A stretch of DNA of 64,000 bases from Candidatus Nomurabacteria bacterium (lineage in GTDB: Bacteria > Patescibacteriota > Patescibacteriia > HK-STAS-PATE-3). Made by a program: the position numbers and the translations under genes. Location of the stretch: positions 448,001 through 512,000 of the forward strand of contig CP060223.1 in the NCBI GenBank assembly GCA_023898465.1. The letters run 5' to 3'. Under the pieces are notes generated by a model. It had not been told where the DNA came from, ran no database searches, and saw only the letters and a program-made list of their open reading frames with translations. Numbering within the stretch: the stretch's first letter is position 1; each line of letters begins with the position of its first letter. Below are positions 869-63,108 of this stretch, piece by piece.

Positions 869-2458
869 TTGTCTGAGGCAAATTCTCGTGCTAGCCTACA
901 GCTTAGCATGAACAGCCCACTTCAGCACGAATCTTTATTGGAAAAAGTTGGCCTTATCGCCTTAGCGCTCTTTTTTAGCGCATGCACACTGCTTATCGTA
1001 CTCAGGGCTCCGTACCAGGCAGGTGGCGATCTTTTTTTTCATACTTGGTTTACGCAACAGATAATTGACTCAGGTCAGATTCCTCAAAGCGCGCCAACCT
1101 ACGCAGCGGCAACGCACTATAGCTTAGCACCACTTTTCCACTTTATTATCGCGAGTATTCAAAGTGTTGTTCATATTCCTCTCACGACACTTCTTCCACT
1201 CCTTAACATAGGGGCGGCGGCACTCTGGATAAGCTTACTTTTTCTCGTTATTAAGCAAAGCACTAGGAGAGTGGACGCAGCACTCTTTGGCGCGCTACTA
1301 AGCATCTTCTTCACCGAGGATAGCAGTTTTTTCTATCTACTCCCGCGCACGGTAAGTATGTGTGTAGTCCTTGCAGCAATGTATGTACTCAACAGCACGC
1401 TAACTCGATTCCCTCGCCTCATCATGCTTAGTTTATTTAGTTTAAGCATACTCCTCCTGCACCTCCCCTCAGCTCCTTTTTGGTTAAGTATTCTTGCAAC
1501 GTTATCTATAGTACGGGCTTGGCGTGATTACAGAAAAATCCTTCATGATATTTTTGCGTTCGGACTTGGCGCAGCGCTCTTCATCATTTTATTACTCCCT
1601 GAAATTTTGAAAAATGGGATACCAATAAATCCAAGTGACTCTAGCTTCCAGTCACAGAGCGACGCCCCCTTAGCCATTGCCCAATTGCTTCATGTAGTAC
1701 AAAATCCATTTGTTGCTATTTCGATCATACTAGGACTCGCCGGACTTCTCACTTACACGTATCGATCAAAAAATAAAACGTCACTTTGGATGTTATGGGC
1801 TTTTCTGATTGCGAGCACACTGGTTGCAATGCAAGAATTTGGTCAATATGCTTTCCTGCCCGAGAGAGCAATTAGTTATCTCTTCATACCTTTTTCACTA
1901 CTAGCGGGATATGCCTACTTGGCAATCAATAGCATAATCCCAAACTCCTATCGCGTCATTATTTTTACTCTATTGCTGCTAACCATCATTCCACTAGGCG
2001 CGTTACAATTACTTAATAGCAATGAAGCACCGCTCAAAGACGCAGTCAGCCATGATGAGTTACAAGGTCTCAATGATCTACGTGAAGCTCTGCCTGAAGG
2101 TGCTTTTGCTAGCGACCCACTAACCATGGTAAAAATTGCCAGTATTACAAATCTTCAACCGGCCATTTCATTTGAGGCAACTAATTTACGTGCCGCGAGC
2201 GTGAGAAATTGGCCTATTGTTATTGGACTATTTGGCCCAGAAGAAAACCTTATTCCCTACCTTACTCAAAATAACATCAAATATATTATTCTTTCCACTG
2301 ATACCTATCAAAGATTCCTTCATTTAGATGAGCGCTTTGCAAGTCAAGCAGTTTTTGAAAATATTTTTACCTCAAAACAAACAATAACTCTTGAGGGATT
2401 TAGCGATCCAATTCCCTATTACGCCGTGTATCGCTACCTAGGAGCCAACGAAGAATAA
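869..2458 (+). CDS. Polytopic integral membrane protein with C-terminal soluble domain (possible GT-C-type glycosyltransferase or polymerase/ligase-like)
   Basis: 529-aa ORF with more than 10 hydrophobic segments in the first ~340 residues, then a ~180-aa hydrophilic tail. It sits adjacent to GT4 genes. TTG start at 869; first ATG at 908. Confidence 0.5.
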   Translation: MSEANSRASLQLSMNSPLQHESLLEKVGLIALALFFSACTLLIVLRAPYQAGGDLFFHTWFTQQIIDSGQIPQSAPTYAAATHYSLAPLFHFIIASIQSVVHIPLTTLLPLLNIGAAALWISLLFLVIKQSTRRVDAALFGALLSIFFTEDSSFFYLLPRTVSMCVVLAAMYVLNSTLTRFPRLIMLSLFSLSILLLHLPSAPFWLSILATLSIVRAWRDYRKILHDIFAFGLGAALFIILLLPEILKNGIPINPSDSSFQSQSDAPLAIAQLLHVVQNPFVAISIILGLAGLLTYTYRSKNKTSLWMLWAFLIASTLVAMQEFGQYAFLPERAISYLFIPFSLLAGYAYLAINSIIPNSYRVIIFTLLLLTIIPLGALQLLNSNEAPLKDAVSHDELQGLNDLREALPEGAFASDPLTMVKIASITNLQPAISFEATNLRAASVRNWPIVIGLFGPEENLIPYLTQNNIKYIILSTDTYQRFLHLDERFASQAVFENIFTSKQTITLEGFSDPIPYYAVYRYLGANEE

Positions 2459-57693: not shown

Positions 57694-58068
57694 TTACACT
57701 GAGACAAAGCTTTTTGCATAGGTGATGGCTTCATCCATGCCGCCTTCGTATTTCACCACGTACTGATCAGCCACTTCCCTACCTGCTTGCATATCCACGC
57801 GTGAACATAGGGAGCTAAGGAGTATTAAGGGGATGTGCTTTGTACGCTGGTCAGCTTTAATGCAACGAGCAGAGGCAATTCCATTCATCACTGGCATAAC
57901 AATATCTGAAATTATCAGGTCCGGCTTTTCATTCATAACTATAGATACCGGATCAGCACTTGGGTTAGTAAAGTGTCGCACCTCAAAGCCAGCTTGGCGC
58001 AGACGCTGGCCAAACTTTTCTGCAAAAGCTGGGTCATCTTCAAAATGAAGTACTCGAGGTTTAGACAC
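57694..58068 (-). CDS. Stand-alone response-regulator receiver (CheY-like)
   Basis: VLHFEDDPAFAE, phospho-acceptor context LIISDIVMP, and a conserved K region. No output domain. Confidence 0.75.
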   Translation of the reverse strand: MSKPRVLHFEDDPAFAEKFGQRLRQAGFEVRHFTNPSADPVSIVMNEKPDLIISDIVMPVMNGIASARCIKADQRTKHIPLILLSSLCSRVDMQAGREVADQYVVKYEGGMDEAITYAKSFVSV

Positions 58069-58147: not shown

Positions 58148-58834
58148 ATGAAAATACTACTCATCGAAGACAACCCAGAAATCCGTGAGTTTCTCAAGCC
58201 GGCTTTAGAAGCGGAGGCTTTTTCAGTTGATATTGCTGAGAATGGTAACATTGGTGCAAAAATGTCATGGGATCACACCTATGACTTGATTATTTTGGAC
58301 TACATGCTGCCGGATAAAAATGGCTGGGAAGTATGCCAAGAAATAAGAAATCGTGGAAATAAGGTACCTATTCTCGCACTTTCGGTGGTAAATGATACCG
58401 AAAAGAAAGTAGAATTTCTCAACTCAGGCGCTGATGACTATCTCACGAAACCTTTTTCCTTTAATGAATTATTAGCCAGAATTAGGGCACTTTTGCGTCG
58501 ACCCGATACTTTTGTGCACAATACACTGGCCGTTGGTGACCTTGAAATGGATCTCATTCAGCAAACAGTACGATGTGGGGGCCAAGAAGTATATCTAACT
58601 CGCAAAGAGTTTGAATTATTGGAGTATTTAATGCGAAACCCAGATCGTCCTTTATCCCGAGGAATGATTATTGAGCATGTCTGGGATATGGCAATTAATA
58701 CTTTTTCAAACACAATAGAAACGCATATTTTCAATTTGCGTCGGAAGCTCAATGAAAAAGCTTCGCGACAAATAATCGAAACACTCCCGGGTCGAGGTTA
58801 TAAAATAAGTTCAGTTTCCAAAATCACTTCTTAA
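58148..58834 (+). CDS. OmpR/PhoB-family response regulator
   Basis: Receiver domain (KILLIEDNPEI...LIILDYMLPDKNG...ADDYLTKPF), then a winged-helix domain (LTRKEFELLEYLMRNPDRPLSRGMI...LPGRGYKI). Confidence 0.85.
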   Translation: MKILLIEDNPEIREFLKPALEAEAFSVDIAENGNIGAKMSWDHTYDLIILDYMLPDKNGWEVCQEIRNRGNKVPILALSVVNDTEKKVEFLNSGADDYLTKPFSFNELLARIRALLRRPDTFVHNTLAVGDLEMDLIQQTVRCGGQEVYLTRKEFELLEYLMRNPDRPLSRGMIIEHVWDMAINTFSNTIETHIFNLRRKLNEKASRQIIETLPGRGYKISSVSKITS

Positions 58835-59051
58835 GATAAAGTTAAGCAATTCTTTATCTCACCTGCTCTATAGTACATGTGCGCCTTGCTGGTCGACATT
58901 GCGCAGTAGTACAAATTTAATAGGAATAAGCCACATGAGCACCTTACTGGAGCAAATGCTCAACCAAGTTGAGACGCGGGGGGAATTGCAGAGCACCGAA
59001 ATTGCTCTGCAGCAAAGTGAGTTCCAGCCCTGGTCTCCCTGATAGCGCAAA

Positions 59052-60506
59052 ATGAACGCTCCGACGCCTCAGTTTGGAAACGGCTTTTTTTCAAAACCGA
59101 ACTACCCGCGTAAGGGCGTTCATTTTTTTCGTCTGCTTTTTGCACTTAAATCCATTGATGAGGATAAGCGTCGTAAGGAATTTATTCTCCTTATTATTCT
59201 GACGACCTCCATACTTATTGTCCTAGCGCTGAATCTCAGCGTACTTATTCGATTACTGCAAAGCCCTGACTTCACCGATCTGCGAGTTGCCGTCCCTTTC
59301 ATCATACTTCTCGCCTTTGTTTTTCTCTTCTGGTTAATGAAAAAACAACACATTACGATTACATCGTACATTGTCGTTGGAGTATATTTCTTCAGTATAA
59401 GCTTTGCTGCTTATACTTGGGGTATTGATTTGCCGGCCGCACTACTGAGTTTTGGTGTCCTCCTTTTTATTTCCGGAATGCTTATTTCAGCTCGCTTTGG
59501 TATTGGCTTGGCTATTGCCACTGCGGCTATCTTGATTTATTTTGCGTATCTGGAAGAGCACGGTATACACACACCGGACCGAGCCTGGATACAACAAGGG
59601 ATACGAGTAAGCGATGCCATAAATTTTTCTATCATACTGCTCTTTTTAACTGTGATCTCATGGCTGGCTAACTCCCAAATCAATAAATCTTTGCAACGCG
59701 CTCGATATTCTGAGGAAGCCCTGAAACAAGAGAAAGACCTACTAGAAATTACGGTACAAAATCGCACAAAGGCTTTGCGAAAAATTGAGCTACAAAAAAT
59801 ATCCGAGCTGTCTCAATTTGCTGAATTTGGCCGACTAGCAGCAGGACTGTTTCATGATCTCATTAATCCACTTAATGGCCTGCTCTTAAATATCCATCGC
59901 CTCTAACAAAGTGATGAAGCAAAGCAAGGAGACACACAAGAACGTATACAGCAAGCCGTAAAAGTAGGAGCTAAATTACAAGAATTTATTCAAAGGATTA
60001 AAAAGCAAATTAGTCGGGAACAAAGCCATGAAATATTTTTCCCAGCAAATGAGATTAGCGATGTTATCGAGCTACTGCGATACCAAAGCACTGAAGCAAA
60101 GGTGCATATCGCCTGCGTGACCACTAGAGAAATTTCCATTTATGGCTCCCCTCTCCTGTTTAGACAGCTCATACTCAATCTCCTAACCAACGCGATTGAG
60201 GCGTATCAAGGAACTGAGCAAAAAGATAAAACTGTACTCATCACACTTCATGCAGATAATGCAAATAATGAACTGAGCGTCCGAGATCATGGAGTTGGTA
60301 TCCCGAAAGATAAGCTCTATAAAATATTTGAGCCATTTTATACGACCAAGCCTAGTGATACTGGGATAGGCATTGGACTATCCACCGTTAAAAGTATTGT
60401 TGAGCAAGAATTGGGAGGAAGTATTAAGGTGCAAAGCGGCGAATATACAACCTTTACCATTCGTTGGCCTCAAAACTCTTCACCGACGCGACATGGAGAA
60501 CACTAA
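59052..60506 (+). pseudogene. Sensor histidine kinase interrupted by a single in-frame TAA
   Basis: TM sensor region and H-box ...AAGLFHDLINPLNGLLLNIHRL, then TAA at 59904-59906. The same frame continues QSDEAKQGDTQERIQQAVKVGAKLQEF...VHIACV into the HATPase_c domain (N-box NLLTNAIEA, DHGVGIP, G-boxes GIGIGLS) of track ORF 60102-60506. Confidence 0.6.
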
Positions 60507-62439
60507 TGCGCAGATCATCAAACAAGGACTACGTTACCTACAAAACATACAAACAAAAGAAGGGGGCTTCCTCAGTCAATCAAGCCCACTAAGCGAAAAA
60601 AATCCCAGGGGAATTCCGCGCCTCACGAGTTTTTTTACTTCACATGTACTTTTTTGCCTTGCTCAACTTCGCGAGTACACTGAAACAGAACTCATCATTA
60701 AGAAAGCCGAGCATTTTTTACGTTCACAAATTAACGCGCAGGGTTCATTTAATTACTGGAATAGAACAAGTACAGAGGCTACACAAATCCCCTATCCGGA
60801 TGACCTCGATGATACGATATGTGGATGGAATGCGCTCCATCTACTTCACACCGACGGTCTAAGCGGCGCTGAGTTGGCCAAGCTCACTCAACTCCTTATT
60901 CATCAGGAAGAGCAACCCGGCGGACCCTACCGCACCTGGCTACTGAATTCTCACTCCCCTGATGGTGAATGGTCAGATACTGATTTGGCAGTCAATGCAC
61001 ATATCGCCCGCCTTTTACGTTACCTCGGAGTAAAAACACCGCGCCTAGATGCTTTTTTAGAAAATGCATTGCGACAGGAAGTTCTCCTCTCGCGATATTA
61101 TCCTAGCTCCTTCCCAATCCTCTATGCGCTCTCCTATCGTAGCCCTCAAAAACATTCAAGCTTTATTCTACGTCATATCAAGAAGCTCCAACTCCCTGAC
61201 GGCACCTGGGGTAATCCATTACATAACGCTTTAGCTATTGAAACGCTGAGGGAGCTTGGCATTCGAGAAAATGAATTCGATAGCACTCGTGCGCAACAGT
61301 CCTTACGGGAAGCTCAAGAAAAAGGAGCTTGGCCAGCCATTGCTTATTGTATTGATCCCTGCTTCGAGGGCGAACAAATGATTGCTCGATCGAGCGCCCT
61401 TACAACCGCATACTGCCTACTTGCACTACATCAAAAAGAGAAAAAATCTCCTGTAACTATCGCAAAGGCAAATGAAAGCGAGGCGCGCTTTCTGCATGAC
61501 GTCCATCAAATTCTTTCTTATAAAATTACTAGTCTTGCGCCAGAGTTACAAGATCAGGGTAAGCAAACAATACTGCACTTTATTGAAAAAAAAGAAAACG
61601 CACATATCGCACTCCTCTCTTTACTAAGTTACCGAGCACTTTCCTCAAATATACTTAGATCCGACTATGAGTATCTGCTACGTCTCGCAATAAATAATAT
61701 CTATGGATGGATTGCCTATGGCATTTACGATCACATTCTCGATGAAAAAGATCTCATTGAGAAGCTACCTCTCGCCAATGTTTTACTCCGCACTCTTCAA
61801 TCAGAATACACTAAGCTTTTGCAATATATCCCGGGAGGTATTACTTATCTCGAAAACACTCTTAATGCCATAGACGCGGCTAATGCATGGGAAATTGACC
61901 ATTGCCGACTACACGTTAATGAAAAAAAACTTAAGCTACCCCAACACTTGCCTGCATTTAAGGATCTTTCGCAGCTAGCACAAAAAAGCTTTGGACATGC
62001 ACTACCAGCAATAACGGTATTTGCGCTCCACGGCTATAGCTTAGAAGAAGCTCCCCTTCAACATTTGCAAAACTTTTTTAAACACTTCCTCATAGCACGT
62101 CAGTTAAACGATGATGCACATGACTGGCTTACTGACTTAACAAAAGGAAGAATCACGCCAGCCAACCTGCGGGTGATTAAAAAAATATCAACTAAAGAAA
62201 TTAACTTTCAAGAGGATCTTACAAAACTAAAAAAAATGTATTGGGAAGAATGTATCAATGATATTAGTCAAGAAATTCTTCAGCATATTGCTGAAGCAAA
62301 AAATGAGCTTGGACAAATTAATATAGCAAATCCTGAGTACCTCAGCTCACTTCTTCACTCCTCGGAAACTGCAGCTAAAGAGGCAAAAAAACAAAGTAAG
62401 CAAATACTAGGCTTTCTAAAAAACTTTCATCCAGCCTAG
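60493..62439 (+). CDS. Squalene-cyclase/prenyltransferase-repeat-like alpha/alpha-toroid protein with DxDDT motif and C-terminal domain of unknown function
   Basis: Start at ATG 60493 (MENTNAQIIKQGLRYLQNIQTKEGGF). QxxxG(F/W)-type repeats (QNIQTKEGGF, QINAQGSFNYW, QLPDGTWG) and PDDLDDTICGWNAL (DxDDT, 60799-60816). Confidence 0.5.
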   Translation: MENTNAQIIKQGLRYLQNIQTKEGGFLSQSSPLSEKNPRGIPRLTSFFTSHVLFCLAQLREYTETELIIKKAEHFLRSQINAQGSFNYWNRTSTEATQIPYPDDLDDTICGWNALHLLHTDGLSGAELAKLTQLLIHQEEQPGGPYRTWLLNSHSPDGEWSDTDLAVNAHIARLLRYLGVKTPRLDAFLENALRQEVLLSRYYPSSFPILYALSYRSPQKHSSFILRHIKKLQLPDGTWGNPLHNALAIETLRELGIRENEFDSTRAQQSLREAQEKGAWPAIAYCIDPCFEGEQMIARSSALTTAYCLLALHQKEKKSPVTIAKANESEARFLHDVHQILSYKITSLAPELQDQGKQTILHFIEKKENAHIALLSLLSYRALSSNILRSDYEYLLRLAINNIYGWIAYGIYDHILDEKDLIEKLPLANVLLRTLQSEYTKLLQYIPGGITYLENTLNAIDAANAWEIDHCRLHVNEKKLKLPQHLPAFKDLSQLAQKSFGHALPAITVFALHGYSLEEAPLQHLQNFFKHFLIARQLNDDAHDWLTDLTKGRITPANLRVIKKISTKEINFQEDLTKLKKMYWEECINDISQEILQHIAEAKNELGQINIANPEYLSSLLHSSETAAKEAKKQSKQILGFLKNFHPA

Positions 62440-62463: not shown

Positions 62464-63108
62464 TTAATTTTTCACGCTAATCCCGCCAAACATAGCCGTA
62501 CCCTGAATTGTCAGAGTCTTGCTCGCATTTGGATCGGGTTGTGATTTATCCTCTGAGCCACCTAAGATCGGTGTTACATTCATCACCACCCGCACATTTT
62601 TTGGCACAATAATATCAATACCAGCAAAACTGGCTGATGCGTTCAGGACTGATTGCTCAGCCAAATCTGCTTCGCGAAAATCTAACTTAATGCCACCGAA
62701 CCAGGCTGAGCTTTGTCCTTCCTTAAAATGACCAGTCACTTTGCGTTCTATACCGCTAAATACCACGCTTGCATCAGCTGACCCTTGATCCTCCTTCATC
62801 CTTCCATCCCATTGCTTTCCCATGACGATCCGGGCACCAAAGACAATGATAATGATTGGCCAGAATAAGGTCCAGGCAGATTTCGCAAAGAGATCGAGTT
62901 GATCAATAAACAATAATAAGCCAACTAAAATAATGAGGGCCGGACCAAACCACATGCGACGATTATTATTCAATGCGTAAAAACCTACTGCGATTATTGC
63001 CAAGGACCACCAAAAATTTGGTAGATTGTCTGCCCAAGCAAGATCAAGCTGCTGCAGGAGAAAACCCAAGCCTAATAAAATCAAGAAAAAACCTATAAGT
63101 TTGCGCAT
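62464..63108 (-). CDS. LiaF-like/DUF2154-type stress-response membrane protein (tentative)
   Basis: Four N-terminal TM helices, then a beta-rich C-terminal domain (VVFSGIERKV...GGIKLDF...FAGIDIIVPKNVRV...MFGGISVKN). Confidence 0.4.
   Translation of the reverse strand: MRKLIGFFLILLGLGFLLQQLDLAWADNLPNFWWSLAIIAVGFYALNNNRRMWFGPALIILVGLLLFIDQLDLFAKSAWTLFWPIIIIVFGARIVMGKQWDGRMKEDQGSADASVVFSGIERKVTGHFKEGQSSAWFGGIKLDFREADLAEQSVLNASASFAGIDIIVPKNVRVVMNVTPILGGSEDKSQPDPNASKTLTIQGTAMFGGISVKN

Follow-up and report, generated by a model that had tools for sequence, protein, structure and literature searches.

We propose that a 648-amino-acid 'hypothetical protein' of Candidatus Nomurabacteria is probably a bifunctional peptide maturase, one that would prenylate the Trp of a small ribosomal peptide and cyclise the prenyl chain to give a pheromone-like product. 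Its gene is the last of a four-gene signalling cassette, ordered regulator, precursor peptide, kinase, enzyme, within the 64-kb stretch of DNA that we analysed (the window). Most likely, the cassette produces a peptide signal carrying a lipid decoration and also senses it. Its genes, and the codon at which the modification is proposed, are as follows.

58148..58834, + strand: OmpR-type response regulator, 228 aa, the first gene of the cassette (Pfam Response_reg E 1e-27, Trans_reg_C E 2e-25)
58935..59042, + strand: precursor peptide gene, 35 aa, MSTLLEQMLNQVETRGELQSTEIALQQSEFQPWSP (AGGA 9 nt before the ATG; peptide-family HMM match)
59031..59033, + strand: codon of Trp33, the peptide's single Trp and proposed prenylation site (family conservation)
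59052..60506, + strand: histidine kinase, 484 codons, about 6 TM helices, cytoplasmic H-box and HATPase_c (translation, orthologue alignment, Pfam, hydropathy)
60493..62439, + strand: enzyme ORF, ATG at 60493, stop at 62437-62439, 648 aa

The enzyme ORF and its PDDLDDTICGW sequence (aa 102-112) lie where a preliminary description of this DNA had placed them; the frame is open already from a TTG at 60373. The protein matches NCBI USN54016.1 ('hypothetical protein H6760_02495, Candidatus Nomurabacteria bacterium') exactly, and its family, which occurs in 305 GTDB species representatives, counts no fewer than 1,229 clusters at 50% identity. We found that the enzyme consists of two domains, a terpene cyclase fused to a prenyltransferase-like domain through a short linker. 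The structure model has a pLDDT of 90 and a pTM of 0.85 outside its low-confidence segments, and aa 141-160 are the sole long segment with a pLDDT below 50.

60493..61440, + strand: N-terminal domain, aa 1-316, single-domain (beta) class II terpene cyclase
60802..60813, + strand: DxDD general-acid motif, D104-L-D106-D107 (aligned to SHC D374-V-D376-D377 and AsDMS D331-L-D333-T)
60919..60939, + strand: GGPYRTW loop, aa 143-149, candidate active-site lid (conservation, AsDMS alignment, model)
61441..61464, + strand: interdomain linker, aa 317-324 (pLDDT below 50 in the model)
61465..62439, + strand: C-terminal domain, aa 325-648 plus stop codon, all-alpha trans-IPPS-fold prenyltransferase-like
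61729..61743, + strand: first Asp-rich motif, D413-H-I-L-D417 (family consensus DDFLD; D413 and D417 invariant)
62101..62136, + strand: second Asp-rich motif with its preceding Gln, Q537-L-N-D540-D-A-H-D544-W-L-T-D548 (invariance, hhalign)

The N-terminal half of the enzyme is an alpha/alpha toroid of the class II terpene-cyclase type with DxDD at the catalytic position. In a family profile alignment, the enzyme's YPDDLDDT falls on YP-DVDDTA of SHC (D374/D376/D377) and on FPDDLDTT of AsDMS, and T108 falls on SHC T378; the likeness to class II cyclases proposed in the preliminary description holds at the level of aligned catalytic residues. D106 is the counterpart of AsDMS D333, whose D333N substitution gave the inactive mutant that was crystallised, while D104 aligns to D331 and Y203 to the acid-activating Y427 (PMC12365925). 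Across 51 family sequences at about 30% identity, D104, D106 and Y203 are each invariant (51/51), and D107 (49/51) and T108 (50/51) nearly so. The QxxxG(F/W) repeats reported previously were also recovered: four Q-x(2-4)-G-x(0-1)-[FW] motifs begin at aa 20, 79, 233 and 275 of the N-terminal 320 aa, against 0.31 expected, a count reached by 0.05% of composition-preserving shuffles. Protonation-initiated cyclisation is the predicted activity of this domain.

Database searches with the single protein were less informative. Scans against Pfam, NCBIfam and PDB gave sub-threshold toroid matches and chance matches only; the Pfam scan that the preliminary description had suggested did return toroid families, TED_complement (E 1.5e-4) and SQHop_cyclase_C (E 1.4e-3), but both fell below threshold. 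Measured against the curated cut-offs, the enzyme scored 18.2 bits where Pfam SQHop_cyclase demands 26.1, and 16.4 where TIGR01787 demands 322.7. SQHop_cyclase_C matched 20 of the 51 homologues at E <= 0.1, the best at 1.3e-7. The domain has the alpha/alpha-toroid (beta-domain) fold of class II cyclases, and class II cyclases scored above glycoside-hydrolase and other toroids. A LanC-like reading was rejected, as no LanC match appeared and class II cyclases clearly outranked the other toroids; a TED/A2M reading was likewise set aside, since the TED match is weak and complement C4A reached just E 0.48 with the family profile.

The family also carries the GGPYRTW loop, a 6-residue insertion relative to AsDMS that sits in the low-confidence segment aa 141-160. 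Its G, G, P, Y, T and W are invariant in all 51 family sequences, and the loop may act as an active-site lid.

The C-terminal domain is prenyltransferase-like, with an all-alpha trans-IPPS fold. It had been described as a half of about 270 aa with no recognisable motif; instead, it spans about 325 aa and contains two invariant Asp-rich motifs. The first stands in the context Y-D413-x-x-x-D417 (family consensus YDDFLD) and lines up, by hhalign, with FARM in the canonical IDS enzymes encoded nearby. The second reads in full Q537-L-N-D540-D-A-H-D544-W-x-x-D548-x-x-x-G552, of which Q537, D540, D544, W545, D548 and G552 are invariant across the family and D540/D541/D544 conserved. Its IDS counterpart in hhalign (local mode, low mact) is the segment AFQxxDD...DIxEGK, whose GK loop the enzyme family lacks; the colinearity of the two motifs with FARM and SARM has an E of 9e-4 and a probability of only 23%. 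The Gln immediately before SARM is described as the determinant of Trp recognition in ComQ, PalQ, ChrPC and Ord1 (PMC13290415), but because ordinary IDS enzymes have it too, it does not discriminate. The colinear profile alignment with IDS further showed that GKxxR, RRG (after FARM), KT and the GK loop (after SARM) are absent or deleted, and none of the 51 family members matched PF00348. With these basic IPP/diphosphate-binding motifs and the PF00348 match missing, we do not class the domain as a chain-elongating synthase. The domain profile gave no significant match to ComQ-type or any other prenyltransferase sequence in PDB, its top matches (p14/SF3b14a and Mdm2) being chance, so a comparison of folds was needed. 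The domain is tied to ComQ-type prenyltransferases through fold and motifs only.

We surveyed the cassette in 85 related loci, whose identity is about 30-38%. Nothing recurs across them except four genes: the OmpR-type regulator, the peptide, the histidine kinase of about 6 TM helices, and the enzyme. The enzyme was found in 84 loci, the kinase in 84, directly upstream of the enzyme, and an orthologous regulator in 72, on the enzyme's strand and with its start about 2.3 kb upstream; the other flanks are unrelated. Hundreds of ultra-small Patescibacteria have this conserved cassette. The two-component system, noted earlier as a neighbour, is indeed adjacent, and the 14-nt overlap of the kinase 3' end with the enzyme 5' end (60493-60506) is correct; yet the system is more than a neighbour, being a conserved partner together with a small peptide gene that had been missed. 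No exporter or leader protease is conserved near the enzyme in the 85 loci, and a promoter and terminator scan of the operon gave nothing above shuffled expectation. A point against the maturase reading is that an enzyme serving simply as a regulated output could also show conserved co-transcription with a two-component system.

The kinase matches HATPase_c (E 1e-24), the sole Pfam domain detected, with no HisKA_3 match, and aligns with five orthologues at 30-38% identity. Its ORF is broken by one in-frame TAA at 59904-59906. A canonical polyprenyl synthase (IDS; PF00348 E 1e-58) adjoins the cassette in 17 of the 85 loci, and tblastn with three of these neighbouring IDS sequences found none in the 64-kb window. 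Given the in-frame stop in the kinase, an atypical peptide leader (LNQVETR where the family has LTDKxAR) and the lack of an IDS in the window, the Nomurabacteria copy may be decaying or may rely on genes elsewhere.

The precursor gene is one that gene callers often miss, and they missed it in the Candidatus Nomurabacteria genome too: it is uncalled in public data, and the exact window peptide was not found in a collection of 15 billion proteins. We built a peptide HMM on 6 seeds and ran it over every six-frame ORF in the 85 loci. Among its top 77 matches, 76 lay at one and the same place, on the enzyme's strand and 1.3-1.7 kb upstream of its gene, and the peptide was present in every locus with DNA upstream of the kinase (78/78). 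The window peptide itself matched at E 7e-16 with the seed HMM and 3.9e-7 with a refined HMM. Family peptides are 34-40 aa long, with a conserved leader and a hypervariable middle. Exactly one Trp occurs in 75 of 77 distinct peptides, always 1-6 residues from the C-terminus and in 56 of the 77 preceded by Pro, whereas the background of this Trp pattern among small ORFs of the same loci is 4.5%.

The two folds and their motifs, the alignment at the catalytic position, the conservation of the cassette and the invariance of the Trp are results of the analysis; we infer the substrate, its chain length, which reaction comes first, the export and the pheromone role as follows. With its Asp-rich motifs and Mg2+, the C-terminal trans-IPPS-like domain would bind FPP or GGPP as the prenyl diphosphate and move the prenyl group onto the indole of the conserved Trp, as ComQ, PalQ and StheQ do. 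D106 of the N-terminal domain would then protonate the terminal double bond of the attached chain, and the domain would fold the chain into a bi- or polycyclic terpenoid in the manner of the C domains of NctPC and ChrPC. On the order of the reactions, AsDMS R378, a critical diphosphate-binding Arg, is replaced in the family by invariant W160, and the R380 position by D162 (50/51); these replacements favour a cyclase substrate without a diphosphate, namely a prenylated peptide. The modified peptide would be exported, probably after removal of its leader, and sensed by the polytopic histidine kinase, which would signal through the OmpR-type regulator.

The alternative that survives best, although we consider it unlikely, is a small-molecule terpenoid synthase modelled on the bifunctional class II/class I diterpene synthases: the class II domain would cyclise FPP or GGPP and the alpha domain would ionise or otherwise process the product into a cyclic terpenoid such as a membrane lipid. 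The two-component system would then merely regulate expression, and the peptide would be an unmodified signal or an unrelated micro-protein. Consistent with this idea, both domains come from terpenoid enzyme superfamilies, a kinase of polytopic, intramembrane type could sense membrane state, the IDS beside 17 loci fits any terpenoid pathway, and the closest sequence match of the N-terminal domain is AsDMS, a cyclase of free FPP.

Next in order, and also doubtful, is a Trp-terpenylated peptide that serves as an antimicrobial or host-directed lipopeptide and not as a pheromone, with the two-component system acting in induction or immunity. Hubrich et al., in 2024, reportedly described the product of a fused prenyltransferase-cyclase maturase as an antibiotic-type RiPP, which is to our knowledge the only product known for such a fusion and a point in this alternative's favour. 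Patescibacteria are mostly episymbionts, making a membrane-active peptide aimed at a host plausible, and the hypervariable middle of the peptide would suit such a role. Against it, neither immunity nor transporter genes recur in the neighbourhood of the enzyme in the 85 loci, and the strict four-gene layout, with a polytopic kinase right after the peptide gene, parallels ComQXPA and PalPXQ (PMC4008528, PMC10853753).

It is very improbable that the enzyme is PvCPS-like, with an alpha domain that elongates chains to GGPP and a fused cyclase that releases a cyclic prenyl diphosphate: all four basic IDS motifs are missing from the C-terminal domain, no PF00348 match was obtained, 17 loci encode a canonical IDS separately beside the cassette, and the cyclase lacks the diphosphate-binding arginines of AsDMS. 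Least credible of all is a non-catalytic toroid that binds polyprenyl or glycan ligands for the window's glycosylation locus, a link raised in the preliminary description; the weak TED/A2M matches and a large glycan locus with GT-C/PMT_2 enzymes in the same window speak for it, but the catalytic DxDD and its partner Tyr stay invariant among 51 sequences of about 30% identity, other toroids score below class II cyclases, and the locus (about 14-36 kb) lies more than 24 kb away, with no glycosylation gene recurring beside the enzyme in 85 loci.

A bolder reading, held more tentatively and with slightly less than even confidence, is that Patescibacteria (the candidate phyla radiation) carry a dedicated, widespread system of cell-cell signalling in which a fusion of cyclase and prenyltransferase produces a ribosomal peptide with a cyclised terpenoid on Trp, and a cognate two-component system detects it. 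The system is unannotated and widespread in this group; in the literature we found no report of ComQXPA together with Patescibacteria, and no relevant report joining a terpene cyclase with the candidate phyla radiation. If the proposal is right, it would give that radiation its first described peptide-pheromone (quorum-sensing-type) circuit, along with a new family of terpenoid-RiPP signals. It would extend to a new radiation both the prenyltransferase-cyclase maturases, a recent discovery, and Trp-isoprenylated pheromones, which have so far been reported from Firmicutes and for one homologue in Chloroflexi. Patescibacteria have genomes of about 1 Mb, and ultra-small, largely uncultivated episymbionts would be spending four to five genes on a lipidated peptide signal, which would bear on how they coordinate among themselves or with their hosts. 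Hundreds of natural enzyme/peptide pairs would become available for peptide-lipidation biocatalysis, and a 'hypothetical protein' family becomes a concrete, directly testable hypothesis.

Several known systems are close to the enzyme. PvCPS, a bifunctional copalyl diphosphate synthase from fungi, joins a beta-gamma didomain cyclase to a true GGPP-synthase alpha domain, and no peptide takes part. AsDMS and AstC are HAD-TC-beta drimenol/drimenyl synthases; AsDMS carries a HAD phosphatase as its partner domain, whereas that of the enzyme is IPPS-like; the exchange of R378/R380 for W160/D162 and the inserted, invariant GGPYRTW loop are further differences from AsDMS. MstE (merosterolic acid synthase), the prenylcyclase 6ij1 and the myxobacterial single-domain cyclases 8pak/8paj are unfused to a prenyltransferase and act on small-molecule substrates. 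PalP-PalX-PalQ of Paenibacillus alvei (PMC10853753) and StheQ/StheX of Sphaerobacter thermophilus (bioRxiv 10.64898/2026.08.29.745113) similarly pair an isoprenoid-synthase-fold Trp prenyltransferase with a C-terminal-Trp precursor, and the Pal locus also has a histidine kinase. Unlike the enzyme, PalQ and StheQ have no cyclase domain, and their precursors are longer (PalX has an NHLP-type leader; StheX is 69 aa); StheQ has the pseudo-SARM NDxxD, whereas the enzyme family keeps DDxxD and a further invariant Asp.

The architecture of the enzyme matches that of ChrPC and NctPC (Hubrich et al. 2024, Chem 10:3224, as reviewed in PMC13290415), which combine a prenyltransferase and an MstE-like single-domain class II cyclase in one polypeptide; there, the trans-IDS-like P domain of ChrPC is described as attaching a C10-C20 prenyl group to an internal Trp of a ribosomal peptide, which the C domain then cyclises (PMC13290415). 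Like them, the cassette has both domains fused and a Trp-containing ribosomal precursor in the same cluster. The cyclase is N-terminal in our enzyme, whereas the name 'PC' suggests the opposite order in ChrPC. The substrates of ChrPC and NctPC are reportedly large RiPP precursor classes (again Hubrich et al., in Chem in 2024), in contrast to the short dedicated precursor within a two-component cassette that we propose here.

As a circuit, the cassette most resembles ComQXPA of Bacillus subtilis, in which the isoprenyl transferase ComQ, the pre-peptide ComX, the kinase ComP and the regulator ComA are encoded by genes whose ends typically overlap, and whose peptide is highly variable save for its Trp (PMC4008528). 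Both systems have a trans-IPPS-fold enzyme, a small precursor whose Trp stands a few residues before the C-terminus, a polytopic kinase and a response regulator on the same strand (PMC4008528, PMC5331326), and two defining traits of ComQXPA, a small precursor beside the enzyme with Trp among its last 5-10 residues and a polytopic kinase with its regulator in a same-strand cluster, are present in the cassette. The parts themselves differ. The enzyme, at 648 aa, has an extra N-terminal class II cyclase domain and no PF00348 match as expected of ComQ; the precursor is 34-40 aa and not 52-73 as in ComX, and has no ComX PF05952 match; the kinase, unlike ComP, has no match to HisKA_3 (PF07730); and the regulator is of OmpR type (Trans_reg_C) and not of the NarL/LuxR type of ComA. 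The gene order is A-X-P-Q instead of Q-X-P-A, and a 2014 census placed no ComQXPA-type locus outside Firmicutes, whereas the cassette belongs to Patescibacteria. Lacking homology to the com parts, the cassette is an analogue of ComQXPA and not a member of the com family, and by analogy with ComQXPA its peptide is predicted to be isoprenylated at Trp and sensed by its kinase.

We found that the open reading frame flagged in the preliminary description is real: it runs from an ATG at 60493 to a stop at 62437-62439, encodes 648 amino acids and shares its first 14 nt with the 3' end of the upstream kinase ORF. Its product (hereafter the enzyme) matches NCBI USN54016.1 residue for residue; that entry, from a Candidatus Nomurabacteria MAG whose contig measures 1.08 Mb, carries no annotation beyond "hypothetical protein". 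The finding, however, is larger than the gene. The enzyme belongs to a conserved cassette of regulator, tryptophan-containing peptide, kinase and cyclase-prenyltransferase, which is widespread and unannotated in the Patescibacteria. In the window the cassette comprises:

58148..58834, plus strand, OmpR-type response regulator
58935..59042, plus strand, short peptide, no prior gene call
59052..60506, plus strand, histidine kinase
60493..62439, plus strand, the enzyme

Scans of the single enzyme sequence gave only sub-threshold matches to alpha/alpha-toroid families, and the assignment therefore could not be decided from this protein alone. A word-indexed search recovered 126 full-length relatives (~640-660 aa, 28-38% identity), all of them unnamed and derived from Patescibacteria MAGs or metagenomes. 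When a profile of the C-terminal domain was run against 1.84 billion representatives of 50%-identity clusters, it matched 1,800 clusters at E <= 1e-3, 1,506 at E <= 1e-10 and 1,229 at E <= 1e-30. Similarly, scanning GTDB with each species represented by a single genome identified 305 encoded relatives, under record titles that included Saccharibacteria, Doudna-, Levyi-, Davies-, Shapiro-, Morani-, Colwell- and Paceibacterota. Complete genomes, CP025011.1 among them, also have the cassette. The record titles of several cassette-bearing MAGs read Gammaproteobacteria, Vitreimonas, Methylomirabilota or Bacillota (loci L015, L020, L024, L025, L026, L028, L034, L035, L040, L044, L045, L061, L074, L077, L079 and L081); their contig sizes and the distribution of the enzyme family make mislabelling probable. 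Some homologues (P0009, P0103 and P0114) come with the precomputed Pfam accession PF28380.1, perhaps a newly curated family that spans part of the protein.

Seven homologues on long contigs (30-35% identity) were inspected for gene neighbours. In all seven, an OmpR-type regulator and a ~450-aa histidine kinase are encoded ahead of the enzyme gene in the same orientation; the enzyme start usually overlaps the kinase stop, and the remaining neighbours all differ. Clustering of all neighbouring ORFs from 85 loci carrying relatives placed the enzyme and the histidine kinase each in 84 of the 85 and the response regulator in 72. No conserved exporter or leader protease was found near the cassette in these 85 loci. 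At one locus, L017, a SAM-dependent methyltransferase (1635..2351, plus strand) is inserted between the kinase and enzyme genes, and may provide an extra tailoring step. Two genes flanking the window's cassette are not conserved in related loci: a stand-alone receiver-domain protein (57694..58068, minus strand), divergent from the regulator, and a LiaF-like membrane protein (62464..63108, minus strand), convergent and 24 nt past the enzyme stop.

In four of the seven long-contig loci, a gene of 36-39 aa had already been called between regulator and kinase, and translation of the same spacer in other loci, the window included, yielded related peptides. We built an HMM from six of these peptides and ran it against all six-frame ORFs of at least 20 aa in the 85 loci. 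All but one of the 77 best matches fell at a single place on the plus strand, with their ends 1.3-1.7 kb ahead of the enzyme gene. After one iteration the peptide was present in 78 loci; in the remaining seven, the contig stops short of the region 5' of the kinase. The 77 distinct peptides (34-40 aa) share an N-terminal leader, M-x-x-L-[IL]-x-K-[IV]-L-T-D-K-x-A-R, followed by a hypervariable middle. In 75 of the 77 there is a single tryptophan, whose distance from the C-terminus is always 1-6 residues and which mostly follows proline; only 4.5% of other small ORFs from the same DNA have such a tryptophan. The peptides matched no Pfam family, ComX included. The window peptide, MSTLLEQMLNQVETRGELQSTEIALQQSEFQPWSP, is preceded by AGGA 9 nt before its start. 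The spacer that separates the regulator stop from the peptide start contains two copies, 36 nt apart, of the direct repeat TGC(T/G)C(T/A)(A/G)TAGTACA (58864-58877 and 58900-58913), a possible regulator-binding site or promoter element; short repeats in two copies often arise by chance.

The N-terminal domain of the enzyme is a single-domain class II terpene cyclase. Four QxxxG(x)[F/W] repeats occur in this half of the protein, against 0.31 expected by chance, and the PDDLDDTICGW motif lies at aa 102-112. The profile of a 51-member family alignment matched the TC-beta domain of the bacterial drimenol synthase AsDMS (E 9e-18), and matched AstC, squalene-hopene cyclase (SHC) and a single-domain myxobacterial cyclase at ~1e-4 each. 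In these alignments YPDDLDDT of the enzyme pairs with FPDDLDTT of AsDMS and with YP-DVDDTA of SHC. The published catalytic residues of AsDMS, D331, D333 and Y427 (PMC12365925), align with D104, D106 and Y203 of the enzyme, each invariant in 51 of 51 sequences, and D333N, the mutation in the crystallised AsDMS, affects exactly the residue aligned to D106. Invariant in this half as a whole are N87, P102, D104, D106, G143-G-P-Y-x-T-W149, W160, D164, N168, S200, Y202 and Y203. In a confident AlphaFold model of the enzyme (pLDDT 90.1, pTM 0.85), the domain is closest in structure to prenylcyclase 6ij1 (26.1), 8paj (25.9), MstE (25.6) and AsDMS (25.3), with glycoside-hydrolase toroids at or below 19.5, and Foldseek agreed. 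Thus, the cyclase assignment made from the DNA alone holds both at the catalytic position and in fold.

The family departs from AsDMS in two respects. First, the arginines with which AsDMS grips the FPP diphosphate are not conserved: the critical R378 corresponds to the invariant W160, and R380 to D162. Second, the invariant GGPYRTW is an insertion relative to AsDMS. It sits within aa 141-160, the sole long loop that the model predicts with low confidence, and for that reason we regard it as a candidate lid.

The C-terminal half, described initially as lacking any recognisable motif, in fact contains two invariant Asp-rich motifs and has structural matches in the IPPS superfamily. The first motif has the consensus YDDFLD (YDHILD in the window enzyme) and the second is ARQLNDDAHDWxxDLxxG; the invariant residues of this half are G405, W406, Y409, D413, D417, N464, E467, Q537, D540, D544, W545, D548 and G552. 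By structure, the domain scored 20-23.7 against trans-isoprenyl diphosphate synthases (solanesyl-, heptaprenyl-, octaprenyl- and GGPP synthases), 20.3 against the indole prenyltransferase Ord1 (18% identity, the highest among the listed matches), 19.9 against the prenyltransferase domain of PvCPS, 18 against MoeN5 and at most 15.7 against class I terpene cyclases. Its profile was colinear with that of 17 canonical synthases adjoining related loci, first motif pairing with first and second with second (E 9e-4 at 23% probability), which is supportive, not decisive. In that alignment the basic IPP/diphosphate-binding motifs of chain-elongating synthases (GKxxR, RRG after the first motif, KT, and the GK loop after the second) are absent or deleted, and none of the 51 family members matched Pfam polyprenyl_synt. 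Because the Asp motifs are kept, the basic motifs are gone and polyprenyl_synt is not matched, the domain appears to possess the prenyl-diphosphate-ionising apparatus of the superfamily without an IPP site. ComQ-type tryptophan prenyltransferases have been described likewise (bioRxiv 10.64898/2026.08.29.745113; PMC13290415). Sequence comparison with the ComQ-type enzymes revealed no significant similarity; the link is one of fold, motifs and context.

A canonical PF00348 polyprenyl synthase (E 1e-58) accompanies the cassette in 17 of the 85 loci (L011, L018, L019, L022-L024, L026, L031, L038, L039, L045, L050, L056, L058, L072, L075 and L079), in most of them directly downstream of the enzyme gene. 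Residues -5/-4 before the first Asp-rich motif bear on product length under established chain-length rules. In these synthases they are mostly small, with W or F in a few, which hints weakly at donors of C20 or longer. No isoprenyl diphosphate synthase (IDS) gene lies within the 64-kb window, which nevertheless encodes polyprenyl-phosphate-dependent GT-C enzymes, implying an isoprenoid diphosphate pool in the organism. The suggested connection between the enzyme and a glycosylation locus did not hold up, as related genomes have no such linkage. The window's glycan-biosynthesis island (~14231-36256; GC 0.36-0.40 over most of it) encodes sugar epimerases/dehydratases, three GT2 and one GT4, two FkbM methyltransferases, an ABC exporter, a DegT aminotransferase, WbqC, an ATP-grasp protein, a sulfotransferase, two large PMT_2/GT-C proteins and UDP-glucose dehydrogenase.

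The cassette kinases are orthologous, with about six transmembrane helices and a conserved membrane motif. In the window, an in-frame TAA at 59904-59906, where five orthologues have sense codons, divides the kinase into ORFs of 284 and 134 aa. An independent assembly of SRR12358675, from Logan, shows the kinase split in the same way; a pseudogene, a polymorphism of the strain or an error in the reads could account for this. The window peptide also has an atypical leader, and this copy of the cassette may be impaired.

We propose that the enzyme prenylates Trp33 of the co-encoded peptide, that the DxDD acid of the N-terminal domain would then cyclise the prenyl group, and that the modified peptide would serve as ligand of the adjacent kinase. 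The proposal for Trp33 follows from the presence in the enzyme of both domain types of known fused maturases. The opposite order, in which GGPP is cyclised to a copalyl-type diphosphate and then transferred, is possible; the loss of the AsDMS diphosphate-binding arginines from the cyclase domain leads us to favour prenylation first. In the literature searched, where Hubrich et al. (2024) was covered through the review PMC13290415, no paper tied ComQXPA or terpene cyclases to the Patescibacteria radiation.

The layout of the cassette is that of ComQXPA quorum sensing, which is defined by an enzyme of IPPS fold, a short precursor whose tryptophan lies near the C-terminus, and a polytopic kinase with its regulator (PMC4008528, PMC5331326). 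The PalP-PalX-PalQ cluster has a layout in common with it (PMC10853753), and StheQ and StheX form another enzyme-peptide pair. Tryptophan is the residue modified by every trans-IDS-like peptide prenyltransferase that has been characterised (PMC13290415). According to the account in that review, Hubrich et al. (2024) described RiPP maturases in which a prenyltransferase, of ABBA fold in NctPC and trans-IDS-like in ChrPC, is fused to an MstE-like cyclase; tryptophan is prenylated with C10-C20 donors and the prenyl chain is then cyclised. By the review's description, the Patescibacteria enzyme has the same two domain types as NctPC and ChrPC. The cassette would be best classed with ComQXPA-like signalling combined with RiPP maturation by a fused prenyltransferase-cyclase.
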